Source of the DNA: an uncultured virus (IMG/VR IMGVR_UViG_3300036770_001202)
Taxonomy: Duplodnaviria > Heunggongvirae > Uroviricota > Caudoviricetes
Direction: 5' to 3' (one strand)
Length of the DNA stretch: 64,000 bases
IMG/VR virus record: IMGVR_UViG_3300036770_001202
Position 1 is the first letter of the stretch, and every line of letters starts with the position of its first letter. A model generated the notes under the pieces. That model was not told the DNA's origin and did not search any database. It saw only the letters and a list, made by a program, of their open reading frames with translations. This document shows, in pieces, positions 29-38,291 of the stretch. The translations under genes and the position numbers were made by a program.

Positions 29-577
29 TCATTGATTTGCAAGTGGGTTATCTAAAGCCTTCTTAATCTTATCATCAAGTTCTCTACGCAGCGCACGAAT
101 CTCCGCTGCGTTTTCTTTTTGTAGTTTTGTTAATTCTGCATTTACTTCTTTAATCGTTGTATCAGAATATCTACGAACTTCTTTCATTGCAGAATCAGTC
201 AATCTTTGATCTGTTTTAGTAGAACGTTCTACACTTTCAACCACACTCTCAAGTCTGCGAATATCACCCTTTAAATCATTTTTGATTTCGTTGGTGTATT
301 CCATAGTCTTGTCTGTGTTTACTTGTAACAATTCAATCTTTTTATAAATCTCTGCTAAGTCTGGTGCAACATACTGCTGAATTTTTTCTTTCATATCCAT
401 ATAATCTTTATATACCTCAAACGCACCATATAGACCACCTAAGACTGAGGTAACAATTGTACCTGCAATCATAAGTTTTGCTGGAGTAAAATTATATCCT
501 CCAATACTAATAACAGTATTGGGATCAACCGCAGACTCCAACTTGTCTACTGCATCGTCTAAGTTTTTTTCTGACAT
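29..577 (-). CDS. Membrane-anchored coiled-coil hypothetical protein
   Basis: 182-aa ORF with one hydrophobic segment followed by a heptad-rich region. Confidence 0.75.
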   Translation of the reverse strand: MSEKNLDDAVDKLESAVDPNTVISIGGYNFTPAKLMIAGTIVTSVLGGLYGAFEVYKDYMDMKEKIQQYVAPDLAEIYKKIELLQVNTDKTMEYTNEIKNDLKGDIRRLESVVESVERSTKTDQRLTDSAMKEVRRYSDTTIKEVNAELTKLQKENAAEIRALRRELDDKIKKALDNPLANQ

Positions 578-8454: not shown

Positions 8455-8807
8455 GTGAAGTTGCTTATCGTGAAAAATATTGGTGGGAACATTATCCGCT
8501 ACACAAACTTTGGTGTAATGATGCATGTCCATTAGTTCCTAGATTTGAATATCGCAGGGGTGATGAATACAATGCAAACGCTTGGTCATTACATTGGTTG
8601 TTTCTTCATGTATGGACAATGGAACATTTTTCATTTGGTTTAGATGCAGGAATCAGTTTTGATGGAATCTATGTTGGTGCAGTTTTACCTTGGTTTCGCA
8701 TTACATTTGGAATTCGTCACGCACACTCACAATTAGGATGGAAAATTTCTAGACTGCTGCGCCGCAAGCCAGCACTAAAGAATGAAAAAGGAGAATACAA
8801 TGAATAA
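8451..8807 (+). CDS. Hypothetical protein
   Basis: ATGA overlap, Trp-rich. Confidence 0.65.
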   Translation: MSEVAYREKYWWEHYPLHKLWCNDACPLVPRFEYRRGDEYNANAWSLHWLFLHVWTMEHFSFGLDAGISFDGIYVGAVLPWFRITFGIRHAHSQLGWKISRLLRRKPALKNEKGEYNE

Positions 8808-9270
8808 CTATGAACGTCACGCTAAAGAAGAATTTCGTGCAGCCGGTTGGACTGACGAAAATGGAAACTTCAATGATGAAATGCAAGAAATGATTTGTGA
8901 TCATGTATTGAAGTTGCTTGAAGTGTTTGATGGAGAAGGACACTCTGGCTCTAGTGCGCCCTATGCAATTAATCTTTTTAAGAAACTTGCTTCTTTCGAA
9001 CCTATCGTGCCATTGACTGGCGAAGATTGGGAATGGGTCAATGTTGCAGAACAGAATGGCGGACCGCTTTGGCAGAACAAGCGATGTGGTCATGTGTTCA
9101 AAGATAACGAAGGTGCATATGATATCAATGGTATTGTTTTTTATGACTGGTATGTAGATGAAAACGGGGATAAACACAAGTCGTATTTTACCGGAAGAGA
9201 AAGTAGAGTGTCAGTAACTTTTCCATACACACCTACCACCGAATATCGAGAGTATGTTGACAACGATTAA
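8800..9270 (+). CDS. Hypothetical protein
   Basis: RBS AAGGAG; GHSGSSA...PLTGEDWEW...QNKRC motif. Confidence 0.8.
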   Translation: MNNYERHAKEEFRAAGWTDENGNFNDEMQEMICDHVLKLLEVFDGEGHSGSSAPYAINLFKKLASFEPIVPLTGEDWEWVNVAEQNGGPLWQNKRCGHVFKDNEGAYDINGIVFYDWYVDENGDKHKSYFTGRESRVSVTFPYTPTTEYREYVDND

Positions 9271-9312
9271 TTTTGTTGATATAATTACTCTATAGATTAA
9301 CTAAGGATTGGT

Positions 9313-9861
9313 ATGAACGAAGAACTTGACGCTAAACTGGTAGCCAATTATCCAGAACTTTACCGCGATAGGCATGGCAACATGAAAGAAACTCTTATGT
9401 GTTGGGGTTTCTCTTGTGGCGATGGTTGGTATCAACTTATTGACGCTCTATCGTGGATGCTGTCTGCTGAACATAGACGCGCCAAAGATCGTCTAGAATA
9501 TTATCGCAACAATTTTGGTAAAGAACTTTGGAAAGGCAAGTTTGTAACCCAAGAGGATATTGACAAGGCGCAGAAAGAACTTGATGAAAATCCTTGTCCG
9601 GTGGCTGTGCAAGTGAAAGAAAAGTTTGGTGGACTTCGATTCTACGTTGACAGGGCAACCGAAAGACAGTATAATTATATTAGTTTTGCAGAAGCATTGA
9701 GCCATAGAACGTGCGAAGAATGCGGCGCGCCTGGTATGACTTATACCATGGGTTGGCATCAAACTCTTTGCGAGAAACATGCTGATGAACGATATGGCGA
9801 AGAAGCAGCACACTATCGAAACAAAACTGCCGAATGGGCGGATGAGGAAGAAAAAACATGA
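9313..9861 (+). CDS. Hypothetical protein
   Basis: CGDGW...QVKEKFGGLRFY...TCEECG phage family motif. Confidence 0.8.
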   Translation: MNEELDAKLVANYPELYRDRHGNMKETLMCWGFSCGDGWYQLIDALSWMLSAEHRRAKDRLEYYRNNFGKELWKGKFVTQEDIDKAQKELDENPCPVAVQVKEKFGGLRFYVDRATERQYNYISFAEALSHRTCEECGAPGMTYTMGWHQTLCEKHADERYGEEAAHYRNKTAEWADEEEKT

Positions 9862-10724
9862 TTTTAGTTGACTTGAATCAGGTCATGATTGCAAACCTGA
9901 TGATGCAGGTAAATTCCAATGCTGCAAATCAGATTGATGAAAACCTGATTCGTCACATGGTTCTCAATTCGCTGAGAATGTATAACGTCAAATTCAAGGA
10001 TGAATATGGCGAAATGGTTATCTGTTCCGACGACAAAAAGTATTGGCGCAGAGATATCTTTCCGTATTACAAAGCATCCCGTAAGAAGGACCGCGAAGCA
10101 TCCCCATTTGACTGGAATCTAATTTTTGAAACTCTGAATAAAGTCCGTGATGAAATTCGCGAGAACTTTCCTTACAAGGTTATTCAAGTTGAGAAGACTG
10201 AAGCCGATGACGTTATCGGCACACTTTGCCATGAGTATGGTGTTTATCTGAAGAATGCTGATACTGAGAAAATTCTGATTCTCTCAAGCGATAAAGACTT
10301 TCAACAATTGCAAAAGTTTGTCAATGTTGATCAATACAGCCCCATGGCAAAGAAGTTTATTCGCAACAATTCTCCTGATAAATTCTTAAAAGAACATATC
10401 ATAAAGGGAGATAGAAGCGATGGGATTCCTAATTTTCTTAGCGGTGATGATTGCTTTGTTACTGAAAGCCGGCAGAAACCTGTAACTGAGAAAAAACTAA
10501 ATAGTTGGATGGATCAAGAACCTGAAGCATTCTGCGATGAGAATATGCTTAGAAATTATCGTAGGAATGAAATGCTGATTGACTTGAGTAAGATTCCTCA
10601 AGAATTCAAGCAAAAGATTCTGGATACATACAAGACTGCCAAGACAAATGGCAGAGAGAAGATTTTCGACTATTTAATTAAACATCGTATGAAAATGCTG
10701 ATGGAACACATACAGGAATTTTAA
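9858..10724 (+). CDS. rnh: T4-type RNase H (5'-3' exonuclease)
   Basis: MILVDLNQ, WRR...YYK..R, EADD, SSDKDF.QL, GD.SDGIPN motifs. Confidence 0.95.
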   Translation: MILVDLNQVMIANLMMQVNSNAANQIDENLIRHMVLNSLRMYNVKFKDEYGEMVICSDDKKYWRRDIFPYYKASRKKDREASPFDWNLIFETLNKVRDEIRENFPYKVIQVEKTEADDVIGTLCHEYGVYLKNADTEKILILSSDKDFQQLQKFVNVDQYSPMAKKFIRNNSPDKFLKEHIIKGDRSDGIPNFLSGDDCFVTESRQKPVTEKKLNSWMDQEPEAFCDENMLRNYRRNEMLIDLSKIPQEFKQKILDTYKTAKTNGREKIFDYLIKHRMKMLMEHIQEF

Positions 10725-10726
10725 CA

Positions 10727-11173
10727 ATGGCTATTGATATTAGTAAAATGACACTACCTGAAATTTTTCAGCATGTCTCTGAGTTGCCGACTGCTAAACG
10801 CACCGATGCTCTGAAACAGATTGGAAATTTACGCAAAGAGGTAAAGGTCTTGATGTGGTATGTCTTTAGAAAAGACGCAAAGTTTGATTTGCCTGCTGGT
10901 TCACCTCCGTTCAATAAAATGGAAGTGCCAGAGAATATGGGTATGAATCGACTTCCCGCAGAAATTCGTAAACTAGAATATTTGCTTCCGTCATCTAATT
11001 TGAACAAGATCAAGAAAGAAAAAATCTTTATCGAAATTCTTGAAGCAGTAACTCCAGAAGAAGCGGAGTTGGTTCTTCAAGTTAAAGATAAGAAATTGAA
11101 GTATAAAGGCATCACAAGGAAGTTGGTAGAGGAAGCACTACCAGAAGTTTTTCTAGGAGAAAAAGAAGCGTAA
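10727..11173 (+). CDS. Conserved T4-like hypothetical protein (usually follows rnh)
   Basis: LP.G.PP...E..FI..LE...EA...KDK pattern. Confidence 0.8.
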   Translation: MAIDISKMTLPEIFQHVSELPTAKRTDALKQIGNLRKEVKVLMWYVFRKDAKFDLPAGSPPFNKMEVPENMGMNRLPAEIRKLEYLLPSSNLNKIKKEKIFIEILEAVTPEEAELVLQVKDKKLKYKGITRKLVEEALPEVFLGEKEA

Positions 11174-11178
11174 AAGTC

Positions 11179-11364
11179 ATGGCTAAAACTAAAAAGTATA
11201 ACAGTTTTCGTGAATTCTATGAGGATGAAGAACGCCCTCGAAAAAAGCCCAAGGCTCCAGAGGTCACCCGAAAAAACAAGGACAAGATGAAAAAGAAATT
11301 TCGTTTTCTTGATCCAAAAAATATGAGGGAAGAGGACTTTGATGAATTCGAAGATTACCAATAG
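11179..11364 (+). CDS. Small charged hypothetical protein
   Basis: 61-aa ORF within the operon. Confidence 0.65.
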   Translation: MAKTKKYNSFREFYEDEERPRKKPKAPEVTRKNKDKMKKKFRFLDPKNMREEDFDEFEDYQ

Positions 11365-11620
11365 CGGTAAAGACTACGATGGTCTCTCACAGAGAGATTT
11401 GGATAACTTGAATTTTTTGTTGACTTCATCTAAATCGACTATCAAACAATGGATGCAAGTGGTTAGTCAAGATGACTTGAATTATGCTTTAGAACTTATG
11501 GCAATGTATCACCTTAGACTTTGTGATTCTGCTGCGGAACAATCGGAACTCAATGAGGCAAGAGAAATGCTTGCCAACATAGGCATTCCGACTTCTAAGA
11601 CTCGACCGGACAACGCCTAA
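11339..11620 (+). CDS. Hypothetical protein
   Basis: 93 aa; D.DNLNFLL...DD..YA.EL. Confidence 0.65.
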   Translation: MMNSKITNSGKDYDGLSQRDLDNLNFLLTSSKSTIKQWMQVVSQDDLNYALELMAMYHLRLCDSAAEQSELNEAREMLANIGIPTSKTRPDNA

Positions 11621-11698
11621 AACCGCCCTCTAGGCGGTTTTCTCTGTCTGGATAGTGTCTGATATCACCCCCACCCTAAAAACCGCCCAAAACCGCCC
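11619..11698. repeat. GC-rich imperfect palindromic element, copy 1 (includes a terminator-like hairpin)
   Basis: AAAACCGCC-ctcta-GGCGGTTTT, then GATATCA and the 18-mer AAAACCGCCCAAAACCGC shared with 31460-31477. Confidence 0.7.
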
Positions 11699-11704
11699 TA
11701 ATTT

Positions 11705-11818
11705 TGTTGCTTTTTTGCAACAAAAACCCAACAAATCCCTAAGTTGTTGTTTTTACACAACATATTTTTTCACTTTTTTGTGGAAAACCCTTGACATGGG
11801 TACCGACTGTGCTATACT
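11705..11818 (+). promoter_or_regulatory. Early promoter cassette with two TGTTGY-N6-RCAACA boxes
   Basis: Boxes 11705-11722 and 11745-11762; TTGACA 11791; TATACT 11813. Confidence 0.8.
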
Positions 11819-11849
11819 AGACTCTGTGATGAACGAAAGAGGTCTTGAT

Positions 11850-12182
11850 ATGAATATGGAAACCGCACTCGAAACCCTTAAGAATGACATTATTGCCGAC
11901 TACGAAGGTTGGCAAAGCAAACCTCGCACCGAGATTCAAGCAAGGATGCTTGATGAGTTTATCAACGGCATTCGAATTGCCGAAGGTAGCAAGTATATCA
12001 AGGTGATTACTGGTTCCTCTGTTTGGGGTTTCATTGTGAACACCGACAAGGATAAGAAATTCCGCAAAGGCGACATTCTCAAGGCTGCTGGTTGGGCTGC
12101 TCCCGCACGAAACGCCGCTCGCGGTAACATTCTGGACGGTGGCTACGAAATTCGCTGGACTGGTCCTATGTACCTTGTCTGA
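11850..12182 (+). CDS. Hypothetical protein
   Basis: KYIKV...VWGFIV...KGDILKAAGWAAPARN.ARGNI family; RBS AGAGG. Confidence 0.8.
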   Translation: MNMETALETLKNDIIADYEGWQSKPRTEIQARMLDEFINGIRIAEGSKYIKVITGSSVWGFIVNTDKDKKFRKGDILKAAGWAAPARNAARGNILDGGYEIRWTGPMYLV

Positions 12183-12183
12183 T

Positions 12184-12244
12184 TGTTGCGGGAAAGCAAC
12201 ACTATGAAAATAGTTGTTGACTTTCCCTCCGAGTGTGATATACT
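12184..12244 (+). promoter_or_regulatory. Early promoter cassette
   Basis: TGTTGC-N6-GCAACA 12184-12201; TTGACT 12217; TATACT 12239. Confidence 0.75.
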
Positions 12245-12274
12245 GTAGTCTGTTGAGTGAGAAAAGGATACGAA

Positions 12275-12523
12275 ATGACGGAATTTGAACGTAACTCTAT
12301 GGGGATGTCCGCTGAGGATGTCCGTGAGCAATACATGAATTCTCTGACTGCACGATTGTCTGGTCAAGAAATGGTTGTTGCTGGTATTCTGTCCGATTGC
12401 CAAGAAATGTTAGCAATGGGTGCAGGACCTAGGTCCGTTGAATATGTTCGCAAACAATTGAACGTTGCGAAGTTTATTCTGTTCGAACAAATGAAGGCTA
12501 CTCGCGAAACCGAGGCTGCGTAA
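12275..12523 (+). CDS. Hypothetical protein
   Basis: RBS AAGGA, ATG 12275. Confidence 0.75.
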   Translation: MTEFERNSMGMSAEDVREQYMNSLTARLSGQEMVVAGILSDCQEMLAMGAGPRSVEYVRKQLNVAKFILFEQMKATRETEAA

Positions 12524-12533
12524 GGAGACTGTA

Positions 12534-12875
12534 ATGGTTATGCTTGTTATCCGCACTCAAGTTTACGAAAACTATGCATGGAACGAAGACGGTTCCATTG
12601 GCACTGGTCCTGATGCATATTGGAAAGCAAAGGGTGGGTCCGAGTATAAGGTTCTGAATGTTCCGTTGAACACCGACTATGAGGCTATCGTTAGCCTTGC
12701 CGATGTAGAACGGGATGACGATTATTTCCGTGAGCATGTTATCGATTGGTCCATAGAGTCCGATGATTACTTGTCGTGGTTCGAAAAGAGCCAACTTGAG
12801 TATGATGGTTCTATAACTTGCAAAGAACCCACCATGGAGTATTCCGATTTGATTGAAGAGAGGATGGTAGCATGA
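12534..12875 (+). CDS. Hypothetical protein
   Basis: RBS TAAGGAG; TQV.ENY...YWKAKGG motif. Confidence 0.8.
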   Translation: MVMLVIRTQVYENYAWNEDGSIGTGPDAYWKAKGGSEYKVLNVPLNTDYEAIVSLADVERDDDYFREHVIDWSIESDDYLSWFEKSQLEYDGSITCKEPTMEYSDLIEERMVA

Positions 12876-13108
12876 GTAAGATGGGCGACCTGCTAATTGA
12901 AATTGAAGAATTATACTTTGCGGGACATTCTGTAACTGCAATTGCAAATGTAACTGGTATGCCAGTAAAGTGGATTGCCGAATACCTTGACAGGTTCGAT
13001 GATTCTGAGTATAATGATTCAATGGACGGTGATGATGCATCGGCTCTAGCCTCTGCTGGATTTGGTACCGATGAAGACTATGGCGGCGGTATGGATGATC
13101 CATTCTGA
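12872..13108 (+). CDS. Acidic hypothetical protein
   Basis: DGD..SALASAGFGTDEDYG motif. Confidence 0.75.
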   Translation: MSKMGDLLIEIEELYFAGHSVTAIANVTGMPVKWIAEYLDRFDDSEYNDSMDGDDASALASAGFGTDEDYGGGMDDPF

Positions 13109-13754
13109 GAAAGATTTTTTTACTGAGAATGAAAGACTGAATCTGCGCCGTTCGGTCCTGATGTTGCGTAACAAATGGACAATGGTAACGGGACAGGATG
13201 CAATTGGATACTCTACGGCAAAGAAAACTTTTTTCTACACGTTAGGCGATTCTCTCTATGAAATGGAATCAAATGACAAGAAGGAAGAAGATATCAATCG
13301 CGGCACACAAAAAATTCTGTTGAAAGAATTCAAATGGATTTACGATAGAATTTTTAAGAAGATTGAGGAGTTGACAGGTAAGCAGGTTAAGTTGTATAAT
13401 GGTCTAACTGTTCCAGGATTTCATATCAGTCAAGTACCAATACAATATTCACCTTCATACTATCATCAGGATCGAAGCATATTGATGTATCGACCTAAGG
13501 TAGATATGAACACGGTGTATTCTGTATTGTTATTAATTGAGAAACCAAAGAATGGCGCATGGCTGGATTACCTAGACAATGCAGGAAACAAATTAGTTAA
13601 GCATTATCACTATGGACAATTCAACATGTGGAAGTCTACTATGCCGCACAAGATTGGTGGGTTTTTCACCCTTCCTGGTGAGCATAGGATTACTTTACAA
13701 TGTCACTATTGTGCCGATCCGAATGACAACAAAATTATTTTGGCGTATTTTTGA
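13095..13754 (+). CDS. 2OG-Fe(II) oxygenase-like protein
   Basis: PGFHI, HQD (HxD), distal H and RITLQ.H. Confidence 0.7.
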   Translation: MIHSEKDFFTENERLNLRRSVLMLRNKWTMVTGQDAIGYSTAKKTFFYTLGDSLYEMESNDKKEEDINRGTQKILLKEFKWIYDRIFKKIEELTGKQVKLYNGLTVPGFHISQVPIQYSPSYYHQDRSILMYRPKVDMNTVYSVLLLIEKPKNGAWLDYLDNAGNKLVKHYHYGQFNMWKSTMPHKIGGFFTLPGEHRITLQCHYCADPNDNKIILAYF

Positions 13755-14062
13755 TGATTACTTTTCTTGATGGTATGGGTCCTCGGCAGTCAATGGCTGT
13801 TGAGATTCTAGACACAGTTCGATTCGGTGCGCTGGATCGTATCAAAGGCGCAAATGGTTACCGCAAGCAAAAACTTGACAAAGGTGATGCATATGTGATA
13901 CCATTTGGGTTATCAAAAGATTGTTATGGTGCAGTTCTGGTAAAGGCACCGAAGAATCTTGAAGTGCAGTATATGATGAAAGGCAAACGATTCAATCAAT
14001 CGTTTAAGTATGCAAGTGAAGTGAAAAGTTTTCTTGTCAAAAAATTCATACAAGAAACTTGA
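13754..14062 (+). CDS. Hypothetical protein
   Basis: About 102-aa ORF within the operon. Confidence 0.7.
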   Translation: MITFLDGMGPRQSMAVEILDTVRFGALDRIKGANGYRKQKLDKGDAYVIPFGLSKDCYGAVLVKAPKNLEVQYMMKGKRFNQSFKYASEVKSFLVKKFIQET

Positions 14063-14087
14063 AAAAATATTTTGGATGTGCTATAAT
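14059..14087 (+). promoter_or_regulatory. Sigma70-type promoter for the mazG-like gene and leader
   Basis: TTGAAA-17-TATAAT with extended TG. Confidence 0.7.
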
Positions 14088-14110
14088 TTTGCATGTAAGA
14101 AGGATATATA

Positions 14111-14392
14111 ATGAATGAACAACAAAAAGAAATTCTCCGAATTACACAAGAAGAATGCGCTGAGGTAATTCAAGCAATCAGCAAAATTTTTCGATTTGGA
14201 ATTGATGAAGTGTATGATGGTCAAACAAACCGTCAAAGGCTTCAAGCAGAATTAGGTGATCTTCAATGTATGATTTCGCTACTCAAAGAAACAAATGTAG
14301 TGGATGACTTTGGAGTTCACAAAGAAGAAATGAACAAACGTAATCGTCTGACAAAGTGGTCAGATATTTTTAAGGAAGAACAAATTCAATGA
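14111..14392 (+). CDS. MazG-like nucleotide pyrophosphohydrolase
   Basis: QEECAEVIQAISK..RFG...ELGDL. Confidence 0.8.
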   Translation: MNEQQKEILRITQEECAEVIQAISKIFRFGIDEVYDGQTNRQRLQAELGDLQCMISLLKETNVVDDFGVHKEEMNKRNRLTKWSDIFKEEQIQ

Positions 14393-14517
14393 AGAAACTA
14401 TTATCGCAACTCTCATATAGAAAAGGAATGCCAGCATCATGCAATTGGCAAGCCGTTTCTCGCTTTGAGGATGCGATTAATGGTAGCCACACACCTGGAA
14501 TGGGGGCTTGTACCTGA
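14389..14517 (+). CDS. Putative 42-aa leader peptide containing all 20 amino acids
   Basis: RBS TAAGGA, ATGA overlap; MKKLLSQLSYRKGMPASCNWQAVSRFEDAINGSHTPGMGACT. Confidence 0.65.
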   Translation: MKKLLSQLSYRKGMPASCNWQAVSRFEDAINGSHTPGMGACT

Positions 14518-14584: not shown

Positions 14585-14694
14585 TGTTGCACGAAAACAA
14601 CGAAGTGAAAAAAGTTCAAAAAGTTGTTGACACCAACCAGGATGCGTGTTAAGATACGCATCTAGACTGAGAAATCAGTCACCGCTCTTTAAAA
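14585..14694 (+). promoter_or_regulatory. tRNA-array promoter with boxB/boxA-like antitermination signals
   Basis: Palindromic box 14585-14602; TTGACA 14627, TAAGAT 14650; hairpin GACTGA-GAAA-TCAGTC 14665-14680; CGCTCTTTAAAA 14683-14694. Confidence 0.75.
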
Positions 14695-14785: not shown

Positions 14786-14907
14786 TTTGATATGTCTACT
14801 GTAAGCCATGGGCTTGATCATGCCTGAGTAACTATGTATATAATTGCGGTAATTCTAGACTATCCCGCATGAGCATAGCAAATAGTGCAGTAGACATTTC
14901 AAATGGT
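14782..14907 (+). ncRNA. Long-stem inter-tRNA structured element A
   Basis: ACCATTTGA-ATGTCTACTG pairs with CAGTAGACAT-TCAAATGGT; internal hairpins. Confidence 0.6.
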
Positions 14908-15204: not shown

Positions 15205-15334
15205 TATAAAAACATTCTGTGTGACTACAGCGGAACAACTGAAATACTTGCCAATGTCGACCAATGCAAGGACCAGCCGTGAAGAGTAGGGTCACCGCAG
15301 ATTCAAGCACTGGTCAGAGTGTTTCTATATGGTA
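15200..15334 (+). ncRNA. Long-stem inter-tRNA structured element B
   Basis: TACCATATA-AAACATTCTG pairs with CAGAGTGTTT-TATATGGTA. Confidence 0.6.
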
Positions 15335-15339
15335 GTTTT

Positions 15340-15428
15340 GGGGGCTGTTCTCTACGGCGGACTGTAAATCCGTTGCCTTAATATGTAGAGTGGTCGGCGA
15401 TTAGGTTCAATTCCTTCAGTCCCCACCA
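15340..15428 (+). tRNA. Atypical D-arm-less tRNA-Tyr(GTA)-like gene
   Basis: 8-bp acceptor + ACCA, anticodon arm GCGGA-CTGTAAA-TCCGT, T loop TTCAATT, no D hairpin. Confidence 0.7.
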
Positions 15429-15592: not shown

Positions 15593-15597
15593 GTTTT

Positions 15598-15656
15598 AGG
15601 ATACTTTCAGCAATTAAAAAACTTTACTGGAAATAAAGCAAAAAGCGTATCCTGTT
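15598..15656 (+). ncRNA. CAGCAA-stem RNA 1 (anticodon-like hairpin, GGA)
   Basis: AGGATAC/GTATCCT stem, TTTCAGCAA, CTTTA-CTGGAAA-TAAAG, terminal GTT. Confidence 0.75.
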
Positions 15657-15664
15657 ATTTTTAT

Positions 15665-15739
15665 TCCGGTGTAGCACAGCGGTAGTGCAGTTGACTGTTA
15701 ATCAATTGGTCGTTGGTTCGATCCCAGCCACCGGAGCCA
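15665..15739 (+). tRNA. tRNA-Asn(GTT)
   Basis: Cloverleaf, loop CTGTTAA. Confidence 0.95.
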
Positions 15740-15740
15740 A

Positions 15741-15956
15741 TCCTCCGTTTACACTTTGTCGGTAAACCGAAAGTGGGTAATTGCCAAACCACAAGAGCAG
15801 GGTAGTGATGAAAGTGACGGTAGCCCCGTTTACCCCAAGGCTTCATTTCAGAAGCGACTTGAGAGATTCACAGTTTTCGCTAGATTGGACTATATCACTA
15901 TCTAGATGGACAGGGTAACCACTCAGTCTTGGGCTAATGAGGATTAGTAGCAAGAC
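15741..15956 (+). ncRNA. Unknown structured RNA X (GACAGGG-ACTCA family)
   Basis: Starts after a tRNA CCA; multiple stems; 3' module shared with 16349-16540. Confidence 0.6.
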
Positions 15957-15997
15957 ACCTTACATATGTTGATTGTTTCAATATATGTAAGGTTATC

Positions 15998-16072
15998 GGT
16001 GATATGACGTAGACGGATGCGTACCGGTTTCATAAGCCGAGGAGAGTGGATCGATACCACTTATCACCACCA
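15998..16072 (+). tRNA. tRNA-Met(CAT), elongator-type
   Basis: GGTGATA/TATCACC acceptor, loop TTCATAA. Confidence 0.8.
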
Positions 16073-16077
16073 ACTAT

Positions 16078-16153
16078 GGTGTTCTTAGTGTAGTGGTCTG
16101 CACTTCTCGCTGTGACCGAGAAAGTATGAGTTCGATCCTCATAGAACACCCCA
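16078..16153 (+). tRNA. tRNA-His(GTG)
   Basis: G-1:C73, loop CTGTGAC. Confidence 0.9.
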
Positions 16154-16154
16154 T

Positions 16155-16230
16155 GTCGCTTGAGCAAGTGTGGTCATTGCAGCGGACTGAAAATCCGATG
16201 AAGTTGGTTCGATTCCGACAGGCGGCACCA
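16155..16230 (+). tRNA. tRNA-Phe(GAA)
   Basis: Cloverleaf, loop CTGAAAA. Confidence 0.9.
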
Positions 16231-16272
16231 AATAACAAAGTAAATTTTCGACAAATAACAAAGTAAATTTTC
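16229..16272 (+). repeat. 21-bp direct repeat x2
   Basis: CAAATAACAAAGTAAATTTTC at 16229 and 16252. Confidence 0.9.
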
Positions 16273-16347
16273 ACCGGATTAACTCAGCGGTAGAGTAATC
16301 GCTTGATAAGCGATAAGTCATTGGTTCGAACCCAATATCCGGTACCA
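16273..16347 (+). tRNA. tRNA-Ile(GAT)
   Basis: Cloverleaf, loop TTGATAA. Confidence 0.95.
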
Positions 16348-16348
16348 G

Positions 16349-16540
16349 TCTCGTCAGCACAAAACGTGATTTGTGTCGCCTACTCGGCGTTATAGAGTCG
16401 GGGGCGGTGAACCGTAAAGAAGAGTGCCCATTCTAGGGAGTCCGAACCGCTGTGCCGAACCATAACGGCTCAGGAAAATATAAACGTGGTGACAGGGAGG
16501 TCAACTCATTACGGGGCGACCTAGAAAACGTAGCCGTAAT
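16349..16540 (+). ncRNA. Unknown structured RNA Y (GACAGGG-ACTCA family)
   Basis: Starts after a tRNA CCA; closing stem, several hairpins, same 3' module as RNA X. Confidence 0.6.
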
Positions 16541-16700: not shown

Positions 16701-16705
16701 GTTTT

Positions 16706-16822
16706 AGGATACATTCAGCAAAAAATATTTCGCCTTCTAAGCGAGAGGTTGTTGGTTCGACTCCAACTTTTTCCACTAGGGAAAAATAGATCAATGGTAG
16801 ATCACTAAAAACGTATCCTGTT
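16706..16822 (+). ncRNA. CAGCAA-stem RNA 2 enclosing a circularly permuted tRNA-Arg(TCT)
   Basis: AGGATAC/GTATCCT stem around anticodon arm, T arm, looped acceptor and D arm in permuted order. Confidence 0.8.
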
Positions 16823-17079: not shown

Positions 17080-17108
17080 TTGACATTCAGTTTTAAAGAA
17101 TATATAAT
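17080..17108 (+). promoter_or_regulatory. Consensus sigma70 promoter
   Basis: TTGACA-17-TATAAT. Confidence 0.85.
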
Positions 17109-19426: not shown

Positions 19427-19546
19427 AGAATAGGTTCAGCAACAATTTACTTAACGGCTTCATTGCCGTATCAAGACGGTCTGGTTCGCCGGACGATATG
19501 AGTTTCGAGTTCTCATATAAAACAAAAAGAAGAAAACTATTCTGTT
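19427..19546 (+). ncRNA. CAGCAA-stem RNA 4
   Basis: AGAATAG/CTATTCT stem, GTTCAGCAA, three hairpins including UUCG and T-loop-like TTCGAGT. Confidence 0.75.
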
Positions 19547-19553
19547 GTTTTTT

Positions 19554-19617
19554 AGGTTAAGTTCAGCAACATCTAAAGCATACAACTTGTAATTGTAAAC
19601 GCAAAAATTAACCTGTT
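19554..19617 (+). ncRNA. CAGCAA-stem RNA 5 (anticodon-like hairpin, TGT)
   Basis: AGGTTAA/TTAACCT stem, GTTCAGCAA, TACAA-CTTGTAA-TTGTA. Confidence 0.75.
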
Positions 19618-19631
19618 GAAAAGGAAATACT

Positions 19632-21053
19632 ATGAACACTTTTGTAAATGCAGTAGTAAATCAAGAGGCTCGTACCGCAAATGGTATGAAGGCTCGTAAG
19701 TCAACTGCCAACGCTGTAGTTGACCTGTTCTATAACGCTGGTGCGTCCCGCGGTAAGAACATCGTTCCAGCATTCTCTGCTGCAATGGCAGAGAACCGCG
19801 ACCTTGCTTTGCGCGTAGCGGCATGGCTTCGTGATGCCCGTGGTGGTGCTGGTGAACGCCAATTGTTTCGTGACATTCTAGTATATCTAGAAAAGAACGA
19901 TAAAGAAGCAGCAAAGGCTTTGCTTCGTAAAGTTCCTGAATTGGGACGTTGGGACGATATCTTTGTCTTCAATGACAAGGAACTAAAGTCTGAAGCATTT
20001 ACCATGCTTGGTGATGCTCTGCGCCAGCGTAATGGCTTGGCTGCAAAGTGGACTCCTCGTCAAGGTAAACTTGCTGTTGAGATTCGCGAATTCTTCGGAA
20101 TGTCGCCTAAGTTCTATCGTAAGTCCCTAGTCGAATTGACTAAGGTTGTAGAACAAGACATGTGCGCTAAAGAATGGGATTCCATCAACTTCAGCCATGT
20201 GCCTTCTGTAGCATCGGCTCGTTACAAGAAAGCATTCAACCGTAATACTCAAAAGTATGCCGAGTATGTTGCTTCGCTTGTAAAGGGTGAAGACAAGACT
20301 GTAAAAGTAAATGCATCTGTTGCATATCCATACGATGTGCTAAAAGGTCGCATCAACTCTTATGGCGTTTCTTTTGACAAGACAGAAATGGACTTGATTC
20401 AAAAGCAATGGGAAGCATTGCCTAACTATGTTGGTGATGCAAACATCCTTCCTCTTGTTGACGTATCTGGCTCTATGACTTGTCCAGCAGGAAAGAACAC
20501 AAAACTTTCTTGCCTTGAAGTTGCAGTCTCTCTGGGACTGTATCTTGCAGACAAGAACACTGGAAAGTTCAAGGACACGTTCCTAACTTTCTCGCACAAG
20601 CCAGAGTTGGTACACATGAAGGGTAACATCAACCAGAAGATTGACCAAATGGTTAAATCTAAGTGGGAGATGAACACTAACCTTCACGCAGCATTCAACA
20701 AGATTCTTGATGTTGCGGTTAAGGGTAACGTACCACAAGAAGAAATGCCAGCAATGGTATTGATTCTGTCCGATATGCAGTTTGACCAATGCGTAAAGCA
20801 TGACAATTCTGCAATCGAAATGATTGAACGCAAGTATGTTGCAGCCGGTTACAAAGTACCACAAGTGGTGTTCTGGAACCTGAACGCATCTTACGGCAAC
20901 GCGCCAGTCAAGTTCGATAAGAGTGGTACTGCGCTAGTGTCTGGCTTCTCGCCAGCGATTGTGAAGCCTATCCTATCGGGAGATATCGATAACTTCACTC
21001 CTGTAGCAGTCATGATGAAAACCATCATGGATGAACGCTACAAAGTTCTTTAA
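19632..21053 (+). CDS. DUF2828 family protein (TROVE/Ro60-like helical domain + vWA domain)
   Basis: LRDARGGAGER, GRWDD, AAKWTPR, VPS.A, vWA MIDAS DVSGSM, ILSDMQFD, VFWNL. Confidence 0.85.
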   Translation: MNTFVNAVVNQEARTANGMKARKSTANAVVDLFYNAGASRGKNIVPAFSAAMAENRDLALRVAAWLRDARGGAGERQLFRDILVYLEKNDKEAAKALLRKVPELGRWDDIFVFNDKELKSEAFTMLGDALRQRNGLAAKWTPRQGKLAVEIREFFGMSPKFYRKSLVELTKVVEQDMCAKEWDSINFSHVPSVASARYKKAFNRNTQKYAEYVASLVKGEDKTVKVNASVAYPYDVLKGRINSYGVSFDKTEMDLIQKQWEALPNYVGDANILPLVDVSGSMTCPAGKNTKLSCLEVAVSLGLYLADKNTGKFKDTFLTFSHKPELVHMKGNINQKIDQMVKSKWEMNTNLHAAFNKILDVAVKGNVPQEEMPAMVLILSDMQFDQCVKHDNSAIEMIERKYVAAGYKVPQVVFWNLNASYGNAPVKFDKSGTALVSGFSPAIVKPILSGDIDNFTPVAVMMKTIMDERYKVL

Positions 21054-37121: not shown

Positions 37122-37894
37122 TTGGACTGATTGGTCACGGTTATATTGGACAGTATATTGCGAAGAAGTTGTCAAGTGATGACTTTAAGTATCTTTGGCT
37201 TAGTCACAAAGATGTAATTCCAAGAGGCGTTAAGTTTATAATTAATGCCGCAGGATACACAGGAGTACCAAACGTTGATGCGTGTGAAATACACAAAGAC
37301 GAATGTGTTCAAGGTAATATTCTATATCCACTTGAACTGGAAAAAAATTTTAACGGACCAATCATCCATATCTCTAGTGGATGCGTATATACAGGATACG
37401 AAAAAGAATTTACGGAAGAAGATGCCCCAAACTTTACCTTCAACAATGCATCATTCTATAGTGCATGTAAAGGACTTGAACAGACGCTACTCAAACCATA
37501 CATGAACAAGTCTTATTTGTTCCGTATTCGTATGCCATTCGGACCAGATAGAACTCAGAAAAATCTCTTGACAAAACTAGAGGCTTATGATAAACTTATC
37601 GACAAAGAAAATAGTGTAACTCAAGTAGAAGACCTAGCAGATTGTGTTACCCATTTCATTGTTAAAAAACCTGCGTATGGTATTTACAATGTAACAAATA
37701 TTGGCAGCACAACCACAAGAAAACTTTCTGATGCACTTGCACTAAACAAAGAATGGATGACTGATGATGAGTTTAGGGCAATCACAAAAGCACCAAGAAG
37801 TAATTGTGTATTGAGTACCAAGAAACTGGAGTCTGTCTATAAGATGCGAAATGTGCAGGATGCAATTATAGATACGGTTAAGCGATATAAATAA
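37118..37894 (+). CDS. NAD-dependent sugar epimerase/reductase (RmlD-like)
   Basis: G.GYIG, NAAGYTG.PNVD.CE, Y...K, R.RMP, PRSNC.L. Confidence 0.85.
   Translation: MIGLIGHGYIGQYIAKKLSSDDFKYLWLSHKDVIPRGVKFIINAAGYTGVPNVDACEIHKDECVQGNILYPLELEKNFNGPIIHISSGCVYTGYEKEFTEEDAPNFTFNNASFYSACKGLEQTLLKPYMNKSYLFRIRMPFGPDRTQKNLLTKLEAYDKLIDKENSVTQVEDLADCVTHFIVKKPAYGIYNVTNIGSTTTRKLSDALALNKEWMTDDEFRAITKAPRSNCVLSTKKLESVYKMRNVQDAIIDTVKRYK
37886..37893 (+). promoter_or_regulatory. T4-type late promoter upstream of tmRNA
   Basis: TATAAATA. Confidence 0.75.
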
Positions 37895-37898
37895 AAAT

Positions 37899-38204
37899 AT
37901 TGCTGTATGAAGCAAAGAGAAAAGTGTTCTGGACGCGGGTTCGATTCCCGCCCGGTCCACCATAAGCATACTAGAGTGACGCTGGGGAAGAGTAATAGTC
38001 AGCGGTAAATAAATCTTCCGAGTATGCTTATGATGGGCCGGACCTGGTTTCGACAGGGCAAAGAGTAACAGAGTGGACAGCACGGTAGGCGATGACCGTA
38101 AATCAAGCAAACGAAGTAAATGCAAACGATGAAAGATTTGCACTGGCAGCCTAAACGCTGACCGGAGTTTTGCTAGTTGAACTTGGCAACAGAATCAACT
38201 AGCA
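37899..38204 (+). ncRNA. ssrA: Circularly permuted (two-piece) tmRNA
   Basis: Acceptor piece ends CCGGTCCACCA at 37962; coding piece starts GGGCCGG at 38035 (G3-U70); tag ANDERFALAA* 38122-38154. Confidence 0.92.
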
Positions 38205-38291
38205 CTTATTCATGATTTGACTTAGTTTAAAACTGATTGAAACTCTATAGATAAAAGTGAGCAATCTCGCTCAATTGACTAGGAGAAAATT

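Follow-up and report, generated by a model that had tools for sequence, protein, structure and literature searches.

Several kinds of structured RNA are known from the tRNA gene clusters of phages. GOLLD and ROOL are highly pseudoknotted RNAs of phage tRNA islands for which homo-oligomer contacts are considered possible (PMC12286853, in part), and rnaC and rnaD of T4 and RNAI, III, IV, 2H and X of T5 are small RNAs located between the tRNA genes (PMC9697503, in part). Here, we describe two RNA genes, termed RNA X and RNA Y, from a tRNA island of an uncultured virus of the Caudoviricetes (IMG/VR record IMGVR_UViG_3300036770_001202), of which a stretch of 64,000 nucleotides, referred to as the window, was analysed.

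Like GOLLD and ROOL, X and Y reside in a tRNA island. However, GOLLD and ROOL exceed 600-800 nt, whereas members of the X/Y family are about 190-220 nt long, well below a size of 500 nt, and they consist of a linear chain of H-type pseudoknots with capture of the 5' end, to which the GOLLD and ROOL models of Rfam gave no match. The stable RNAs of T4 and T5 are themselves absent from Rfam at the gathering level. Silence in Rfam alone is therefore no proof of novelty, and we compared these RNAs directly: a covariance model of X-type RNAs (R1) found nothing in the T4 and T5 genomes, and their tRNA regions contain no match to the pattern for the 3' module. A very remote homology may escape R1, since this model represents X-type RNAs.

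Compact H-type pseudoknots that follow one another and have loops rich in A are found both in the X/Y family and in the type III antitoxins ToxI, antiQ and CptI and pseudo-ToxI, and phage mimics of such RNAs exist. The X/Y family differs in that the pseudoknots are joined by linkers of 0-2 nt without single-stranded tails and are followed by an extra 3' module and a closure. Furthermore, the 34-36-nt tandem direct repeats of the antitoxins have no counterpart inside X or Y, the ToxI model gave no score on either RNA, and no adjacent toxin gene was found. Theta (HDV-like) ribozymes are likewise pseudoknotted RNAs situated just behind the 3' end of a phage tRNA, but in the X/Y family the pseudoknots are serial rather than nested and double, the spacing from the CCA is variable, and the HDV-type models do not match.

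As in the X/Y family, the arc from pk1 to pk4 in tmRNA strings together four pseudoknots in series, after which comes a short conserved element. In contrast to tmRNA, the family has no tRNA-like domain, CCA end or model match, and is closed by pairing of the 5' end with a loop. The raiA motif RNA is also compact, pseudoknotted and about 200 nt long; it is found in chromosomes of Bacillota and Actinomycetota and has helices P1-P6 with two pseudoknots (PMC10861870, in part). Neither the X/Y RNAs nor the homologous loci match the raiA model, and the raiA core was not found in them. For the bacterial Y RNAs (YrlA/Yrn), neither the terminal stem nor a YrlA match was found on X or Y, and the RNA accompanies the neighbouring DUF2828 protein, taken here to be Ro60-like, at only 11 of 65 loci. 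X and Y represent two diverged versions of a single conserved phage gene for an RNA of about 200 bases, and the family to which they belong is real and apparently undescribed, with an unusual, closed architecture of five pseudoknots.

Two RNA genes in a phage tRNA island

The source virus record comprises 139,259 bases and is 78% complete; the window is part of it and encodes T4-like gp32, gp59 and baseplate genes. ARAGORN predicted 27 tRNAs and a permuted tmRNA in the window. Since the tmRNA matches the betaproteobacterial Rfam model, the host group is suggested to be betaproteobacterial. The tmRNA is located at 37855-38245, carries the tag ANDERFALAA and overlaps the end of an RmlD-like gene. 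A gene for a Tad3-family Thoeris inhibitor was identified at 8782-9270 (E 1e-35), and the phage is thus equipped with one or more known proteins of counter-defence. Positions 19632-21053, which lie within the tRNA island, encode a DUF2828/DUF7788 protein of 473 aa, which we take to be Ro60-like. Its relatives are present in 702 cultured-phage records, some under the name RNA-binding protein, and a PDB sequence search with the protein gave no match.

The next consensus promoter after the one heading the tRNA operon (Table 1) is at 17080, and no ORF of at least 80 aa in the ORF list of the window overlaps X or Y. A sequence-only reading of this DNA had placed the start of each RNA (15741 and 16349) 1 nt behind a tRNA CCA, in agreement with the ends of tRNA-Asn at 15739 and tRNA-Ile at 16347. 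This spacing is true of X and Y but is no rule of the family, where gaps of 0 to 8 nt are seen and many members lie behind an ORF or another RNA. The AT-rich hairpin downstream of X (15958-15992) is possibly a processing spacer.

Two tRNA-like genes in the island were missed by ARAGORN, one at 15339-15428 (GTA anticodon region, weak tRNA-Sec match only) and the other at 15998-16072 (CAT anticodon, 45.5 bits). A perfect 23-nt tandem duplication is present at 16229-16272, between tRNA-Phe and tRNA-Ile. Positions 14786-14905 and 15205-15335 are RNA-like spacers between tRNAs, closed by long stems and without an Rfam match; a relative of the former is present on a contig of depth 251 in one RNA-library run (X3).

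Table 1. Positions of RNA X, RNA Y and neighbouring features in the window.
Feature	Position	Strand	Remarks
sigma70-type promoter TTGACA-17-TAAGAT, extended -10	14627..14655	+	candidate by consensus match only; heads tRNA operon with X and Y
tRNA-Asn	15665..15739	+	directly upstream of X
RNA X, whole gene	15740..15957	+	putative ends
X 5' strand TCCTC	15741..15745	+	pairs with terminal-hairpin loop GAGGA 15939-15943 (PK0)
X pseudoknot 1	15745..15775	+	15745-47/15760-62; 15752-57/15770-75; C15745 common to PK0 and pseudoknot 1
X pseudoknot 2	15776..15799	+	15776-78/15788-90; 15782-84/15797-99
X pseudoknot 3	15800..15871	+	15800-03/15832-35; 15805-08/15868-71; inserted hairpins 15817-29 and 15836-61
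X pseudoknot 4	15872..15905	+	15872-76/15887-91; 15880-85/15900-05
X small hairpin P8	15909..15925	+	G15909-C15924, bulged AC, A15912-T15923, G15913-C15922; purine-purine pair G15914/A15921
X terminal hairpin P9 (internal loop GG/UAG)	15926..15956	+	
Long AT-rich hairpin	15958..15992	+	between X and next tRNA (15998); outside conserved family
tRNA-Ile	16273..16347	+	directly upstream of Y
RNA Y, whole gene	16348..16540	+	putative ends
Y 5' strand TCT	16349..16351	+	pairs with loop AGA 16523-16525 (PK0)
Y pseudoknots 1-4	16352..16490	+	16352-16376; 16377-16398; 16399-16451 (hairpin 16427-38); 16454-16490
Y 3' module	16491..16539	+	P8 16491-16507; P9 16509-16539

Sequences similar to both RNAs were recovered from one RNA library. 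In a riverine metatranscriptome, a 215-nt contig of depth 137 from a close relative of X spans 15697-15907 with 18 differences and one gap, and contains three two-sided compensatory changes in the 15840-55 stem; a short Y-like contig has a depth of 3.7. Relatives of the DUF2828 gene reached depths of 78-143 in the run with the 215-nt contig, and the protein genes at 9300-14480 less than 1. The interior of X was covered in one of four RNA-library runs, where contigs attest presence in the library and do not give level, strand or ends.

A chain of pseudoknots locked at the 5' end

The architecture, in which we have high confidence, consists of four H-type pseudoknots that abut one another, a small hairpin with a bulge (P8), a terminal hairpin (P9) and a pairing between the 5' end and the P9 loop. 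The sequence-only reading had recognised the 3' part of this arrangement. The motif GACAGGG-N5/6-ACTCA that it described occurs only at 15909 and 16491 (0.02 matches expected; two or more in 0/100 shuffles), and the terminal hairpin with its GG/UAG internal loop is present in both RNAs, with outer stems at 15926-31/15951-56 and 16509-14/16534-39. Covariation of this hairpin was also borne out, with 97.3% pairing and two-sided change in 7 of 11 pairs among 41 X-type RNAs. The proposed helix between the 5' end and GACAGGG had to be abandoned: it is 75.5% paired in the seven Y-type RNAs with compensatory pairs at none of seven positions, and 59.2% paired in the 41 X-type RNAs, which is not above shuffles. 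The GACAG segment is instead part of a local helix with CTC, which forms P8 and leaves an AC bulged out. The earlier description of the interiors as differing but hairpin-rich also falls short, since those of X and Y both contain the same chain of four pseudoknots. Thus, an unrecognised family with a common 3' module stands, now with hundreds of homologues and no Rfam match, but its structural model has been replaced, and the similarity is not confined to the module, the whole architecture being common to X and Y. In nested folding, X is more stable than shuffled sequences (z of -4.9), whereas Y is not (z of -0.4).

In an alignment of seven Y-type RNAs, 96.9% of 353 cells are paired and 22 of 51 pairs show two-sided change, which was reached in 0/500 shuffles. 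The corresponding values for 41 X-type RNAs are 89.7% and 38 of 49 pairs, again with 0/500 shuffles. Slid controls gave 28-46% pairing for the Y-types and 32-42% for the X-types; the alignments were made from sequence only, and the helices were derived by eye from these same sequences, which favours them over the slid controls. A blind search retrieved 9-12 helices per subtype, including crossing ones and some that are spurious, with 10-25 compensatory pairs as compared to 2-11 in column-shuffled controls, although the margin is slim in the two subtypes with the smallest signal. An unconstrained parser for four pseudoknots was set aside as too permissive; it scored above all 8 shuffles in 8/10 cases, X not among these, and often placed the helices wrongly.

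Each helix can be drawn in both X and Y, and an insertion hairpin sits in the third pseudoknot. In the mixed X alignment, shifts in register make stem 1 of PK1 (73%) and PK4 (70-77%) the weakest in pairing, whereas the Y-types show 100% pairing in PK4. The assignment of PK4 is based on pairing in X and on covariation in subtypes 5 and 14, the mixed alignment being poorly registered in this region.

Within P8, A-U and G-C switch in concert, and the purine pair alternates between A/G and G/A (149 and 93 of 246, with 4 exceptions). Among members found by pattern, 20 of 24 positions in the 3' module are at least 90% invariant, a value that is partly built in by the search patterns. In the 55 members found by an interior pattern, P8 deviates in 14, and GGGC and GT..C of P9 are kept in at least 95%. 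A loose version of the module pattern also matches T-arm and acceptor strands of tRNAs (L023 at 5898, L035 at 6764), and positions 16492-16520 of the Y module resemble the 3' half of tRNA-Asp, for which either coincidence or descent of the module from a tRNA may account.

Complementary sequences are present at the 5' end and in the P9 loop, namely UCCUC/GAGGA in X, UCU/AGA in Y, and codes such as ACC/GGU, UCCC/GGGA, CACUA/UAGUG and UUCC/GGAA in other members. For this pairing (PK0), the score with the own partner was 8.75 against 7.53+-0.14 for permuted partners (0/10,000 permutations, n=92), with at least 3 bp in 97%. In one subtype found by an interior pattern, for which the 5' locator is noisy, it was 8.90 against 8.22+-0.20 (5/10,000, n=41); relatedness of the sequences inflates permutation tests of this kind. 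Among the Y-type RNAs, PK0 is formed in 20 of 21 cells of the alignment, and two pairs are compensatory (18/500). PK0 is a fifth pseudoknot. It would close the RNA if formed within one molecule and link copies head to tail if formed between them, and the covariation is compatible with both. The commonest P9 loop is GUGGU, found in 133 of 265 members. Binding of tRNA CCA ends by the P9 loop was considered and dropped, as the loop covaries with the 5' end of the RNA itself.

An accessory RNA family in viral genomes

The first homologues came from loci fetched via the neighbouring DUF2828 protein, and further ones from pattern scans. Among viral sequences, the X-type module pattern matched an estimated 430 stretches and the Y-type module pattern 24, while the two interior patterns matched 80 and 9; a scan of metagenomes yielded an estimated 750. 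Altogether, 265 distinct members had enough flanking sequence for context analysis. Mean pairwise identity is about 50% in a sequence-only alignment of 133 members, which fall into seven main subtypes. At L320 (about 274-333, minus strand), a 3' module is present without a recognisable pseudoknot chain and with a loop that has no run of G, and other copies, at L098, L107 and L111, look truncated or interrupted by a tRNA.

The covariance model R1, built from the 41 X-type RNAs, finds exactly two copies in the genome and detects Y and its relatives at 15-45 bits (Y: 21 bits). This match proves the 3' module only, because the 5' half of Y is misregistered in the R1 alignment. The equivalence of X and Y over their whole length follows from the X-type and Y-type alignments and from the pairings that can be drawn in both.

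In agreement with the sequence-only reading, a search of the window against Rfam 15 placed no family on X or Y at the gathering score, nor did the element itself match at E<=1 in 40 homologue loci. At E<=10, X gave only a snoRNA fragment of 13 bits. The best match, that of the freshwater-2 model to the end of Y with 21.1 of 49.9 bits, was rejected, the score being driven by the downstream Shine-Dalgarno sequence and ATG. When X, Y and a single homologue were searched by blastn in 50,697 records of cultured phages, only chance matches of 27-34 nt or none were returned, and R1 gave 0/5 in the genomes of BUCT-ZZ01, DLP6, RSP15, T4 and T5. A scan of GTDB with the X-type pattern only gave one match (Phyllobacterium), which we treat as chance since R1 gave no score and the module is absent. 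Full-text searches, in a set that leaves most subscription papers outside, found no description of the RNA. The motif is absent from the parts of the Fremin 2023 supplement that were scanned, and that catalogue of viral RNA candidates may contain the family.

The family resides in tRNA islands of T4-like phages. A tRNA on the same strand is present in the locus for 96 of 100 matches, and the upstream neighbour can be any of 16 tRNA types. Among the 265 members, 127 lie directly behind a tRNA and 50, according to an approximate test, behind an ORF stop; the other 88 are preceded by something else. The gap between tRNA and locked strand is 0-8 nt in the 127, with 0-1 nt in 23 of them, and 124 of the upstream tRNAs encode the CCA. 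The next tRNA starts no more than 15 nt downstream in 55 of the 265 members, which are thus probably released. Two copies are present in 9 of 104 motif loci. Conversely, only 11 of 65 DUF2828 loci have the RNA within the fetched flanks, as counted by eye with our own record and near-duplicates included. No fixed protein partner was found: in the 104 loci, any one protein was encoded within 4 kb in 36 loci at most. The RNA is an accessory, movable cassette, because its neighbours vary, its presence is patchy and no protein is constant nearby. A protein of 76-82 aa, presumably an RNA polymerase omega subunit, is encoded within 4 kb in 35 of the 104 motif loci (e.g. L112, L074).

Possible functions of the RNA

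We tentatively favor the hypothesis that the RNA acts in trans as a nuclease-resistant decoy for a host protein, probably in counter-defence, a reading that draws on analogy. X and Y would be co-transcribed within the tRNA operon from the promoter at 14627 and cut out of the transcript by host tRNA-processing enzymes, through RNase P and RNase E-type cuts. The pseudoknots would stack into a rigid scaffold with both ends protected, the 5' end being buried in PK0 and the 3' end forming a hairpin, while the sequence-conserved 3' module, with its bulged AC, purine-purine pair and GG/URG loop, may provide the binding surface. The target would most plausibly be a host anti-phage ribonuclease or RNA sensor, which we rank first because phage tRNA-rich regions carry counter-defence (PMC11555353, in part) and because antitoxin mimicry by a pseudoknotted RNA of a phage has precedent (PMC3475682, in part). 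Patchy presence, interchangeable neighbours and double copies are in line with action in trans and an accessory status. However, no toxin or other protein was found to travel with the RNA (104 loci, 4 kb), and the structure is strongly kept across very divergent phages, to which a constant partner such as the ribosome fits at least equally well.

Another hypothesis, which we consider unlikely, is that PK0 forms between molecules, so that copies of the RNA alone build a scaffold or a sequestering device, such as a head-to-tail dimer, a ring or a small cage, in the manner of a miniature GOLLD or ROOL. The covariation of self-cognate PK0 is the same for pairing in cis and in trans. By our estimate, the roughly 38 stacked pairs of X measure about 10 nm and P9 only 3-4 nm, and closure in cis would therefore need a sharp fold-back. 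Furthermore, GOLLD and ROOL from phage tRNA islands form nanocages, but the raiA RNA, which is of similar size, is a monomer (both PMC12286853, in part). PK0 would also be a weak intermolecular contact with its 3-5 bp, and a second intermolecular surface was not identified. Assembly of this kind is compatible with a decoy role. That a head-to-tail, RNA-only ring displays the 3' module and neutralises a host anti-phage RNase or sensor seems quite unlikely to us; if true, the ring would be an RNA-only counter-defence particle with a fold unseen before.

Alternatively, the RNA could bind the ribosome or SmpB. It would then modulate translation, its pseudoknot chain working like an IRES or like the pk2-pk4 arc of tmRNA, and the 3' module would be a relic of the 3' half of a tRNA or tmRNA. 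In tmRNA, a string of pseudoknots is followed by a small hairpin led by GAC, and the X/Y family has the same order. The matches of the loose module pattern to real T-arm and acceptor strands are in line with such a relic, and these phages invest in translation, as seen from the 27 tRNAs and the tmRNA predicted by ARAGORN. GOLLD has been reported to pull down ribosomes (PMC12286853, in part). However, tmRNA and tRNA models match neither X, Y nor the elements in 40 homologue loci, and X and Y have no 3' CCA. The P8 purine swap joins bases that are 7 apart, which differs from the geometry of a T-loop, and the phage already has a tmRNA. On balance, we regard this role as unlikely.

It is less likely still, and in our view doubtful, that the family represents a new class of ribozyme, in which the P9 loop would hold the 5' strand as a substrate while the 3' module catalyses cleavage or ligation beside it, either to remove tRNA trailers or to release the RNA itself. 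The docked strand adjoins the most conserved residues, and 127 of the 265 members lie just behind a tRNA, a slot that is also occupied by theta ribozymes (PMC10879173, in part). Yet the gap from CCA to docked strand varies over 0-8 nt, with 0-1 nt in 23/127, whereas 77% of theta ribozymes are within 1 nt. Moreover, 124 of the 127 upstream tRNAs already encode the CCA, half of the family lacks a tRNA immediately upstream, members found without bias vary in P8, and no ribozyme model matches the element.

Stacked pseudoknots block exonucleases, and a pseudoknot tract is present in the 3' UTRs of tobamoviruses. By analogy, the RNA could be a cis-acting stabiliser or processing signal that protects the upstream tRNA or mRNA, and 50 of the 265 members do lie behind an ORF stop. 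This is highly improbable, given that the upstream neighbours are interchangeable, that the RNA is absent from most related islands, that five pseudoknots and non-canonical pairs far exceed the needs of a roadblock, and that the 55 members separated from the next tRNA by no more than 15 nt are probably released.

Equally improbable is a role as the partner RNA of the DUF2828/DUF7788 protein, which is encoded in the same island and has relatives in one RNA library together with those of X, but the RNA is absent within the fetched flanks of 54 of 65 loci of the protein, the protein is found in 702 cultured-phage records and the RNA in none of three such genomes tested, X and Y have neither a terminal 5'-3' stem nor a YrlA match, and other elements in the window are more Y-like. 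Several elements in the island and just before the DUF2828 gene (15593-15656, 16701-16822 and 19427-19620) are closed by stems and have an internal CAGCAA motif in common. One of them has weak matches to tRNA (30.5 bits) and YrlA (30.7 bits, E 5e-4) and contigs in 4/4 RNA-library runs. These elements are better candidates than X and Y for Y-RNA-like partners of the protein.

The stable RNAs of phage tRNA clusters, such as rnaC and rnaD of T4, the T5 RNAs, GOLLD and ROOL, remain unexplained. The X/Y family offers hundreds of diverse sequences together with an explicit and mutable model of five pseudoknots in about 200 nt. Its alternative codes for pairing of the 5' end with the loop represent a natural set, swaps of which would test directly whether the RNA assembles in cis or in trans. 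The small size makes transcription, probing and imaging feasible, and binding as a decoy, ribozyme activity, ribosome binding and self-assembly are each decidable by a simple assay. A pseudoknot chain that is naturally locked at its end would also be a useful scaffold for the stabilisation of RNA.
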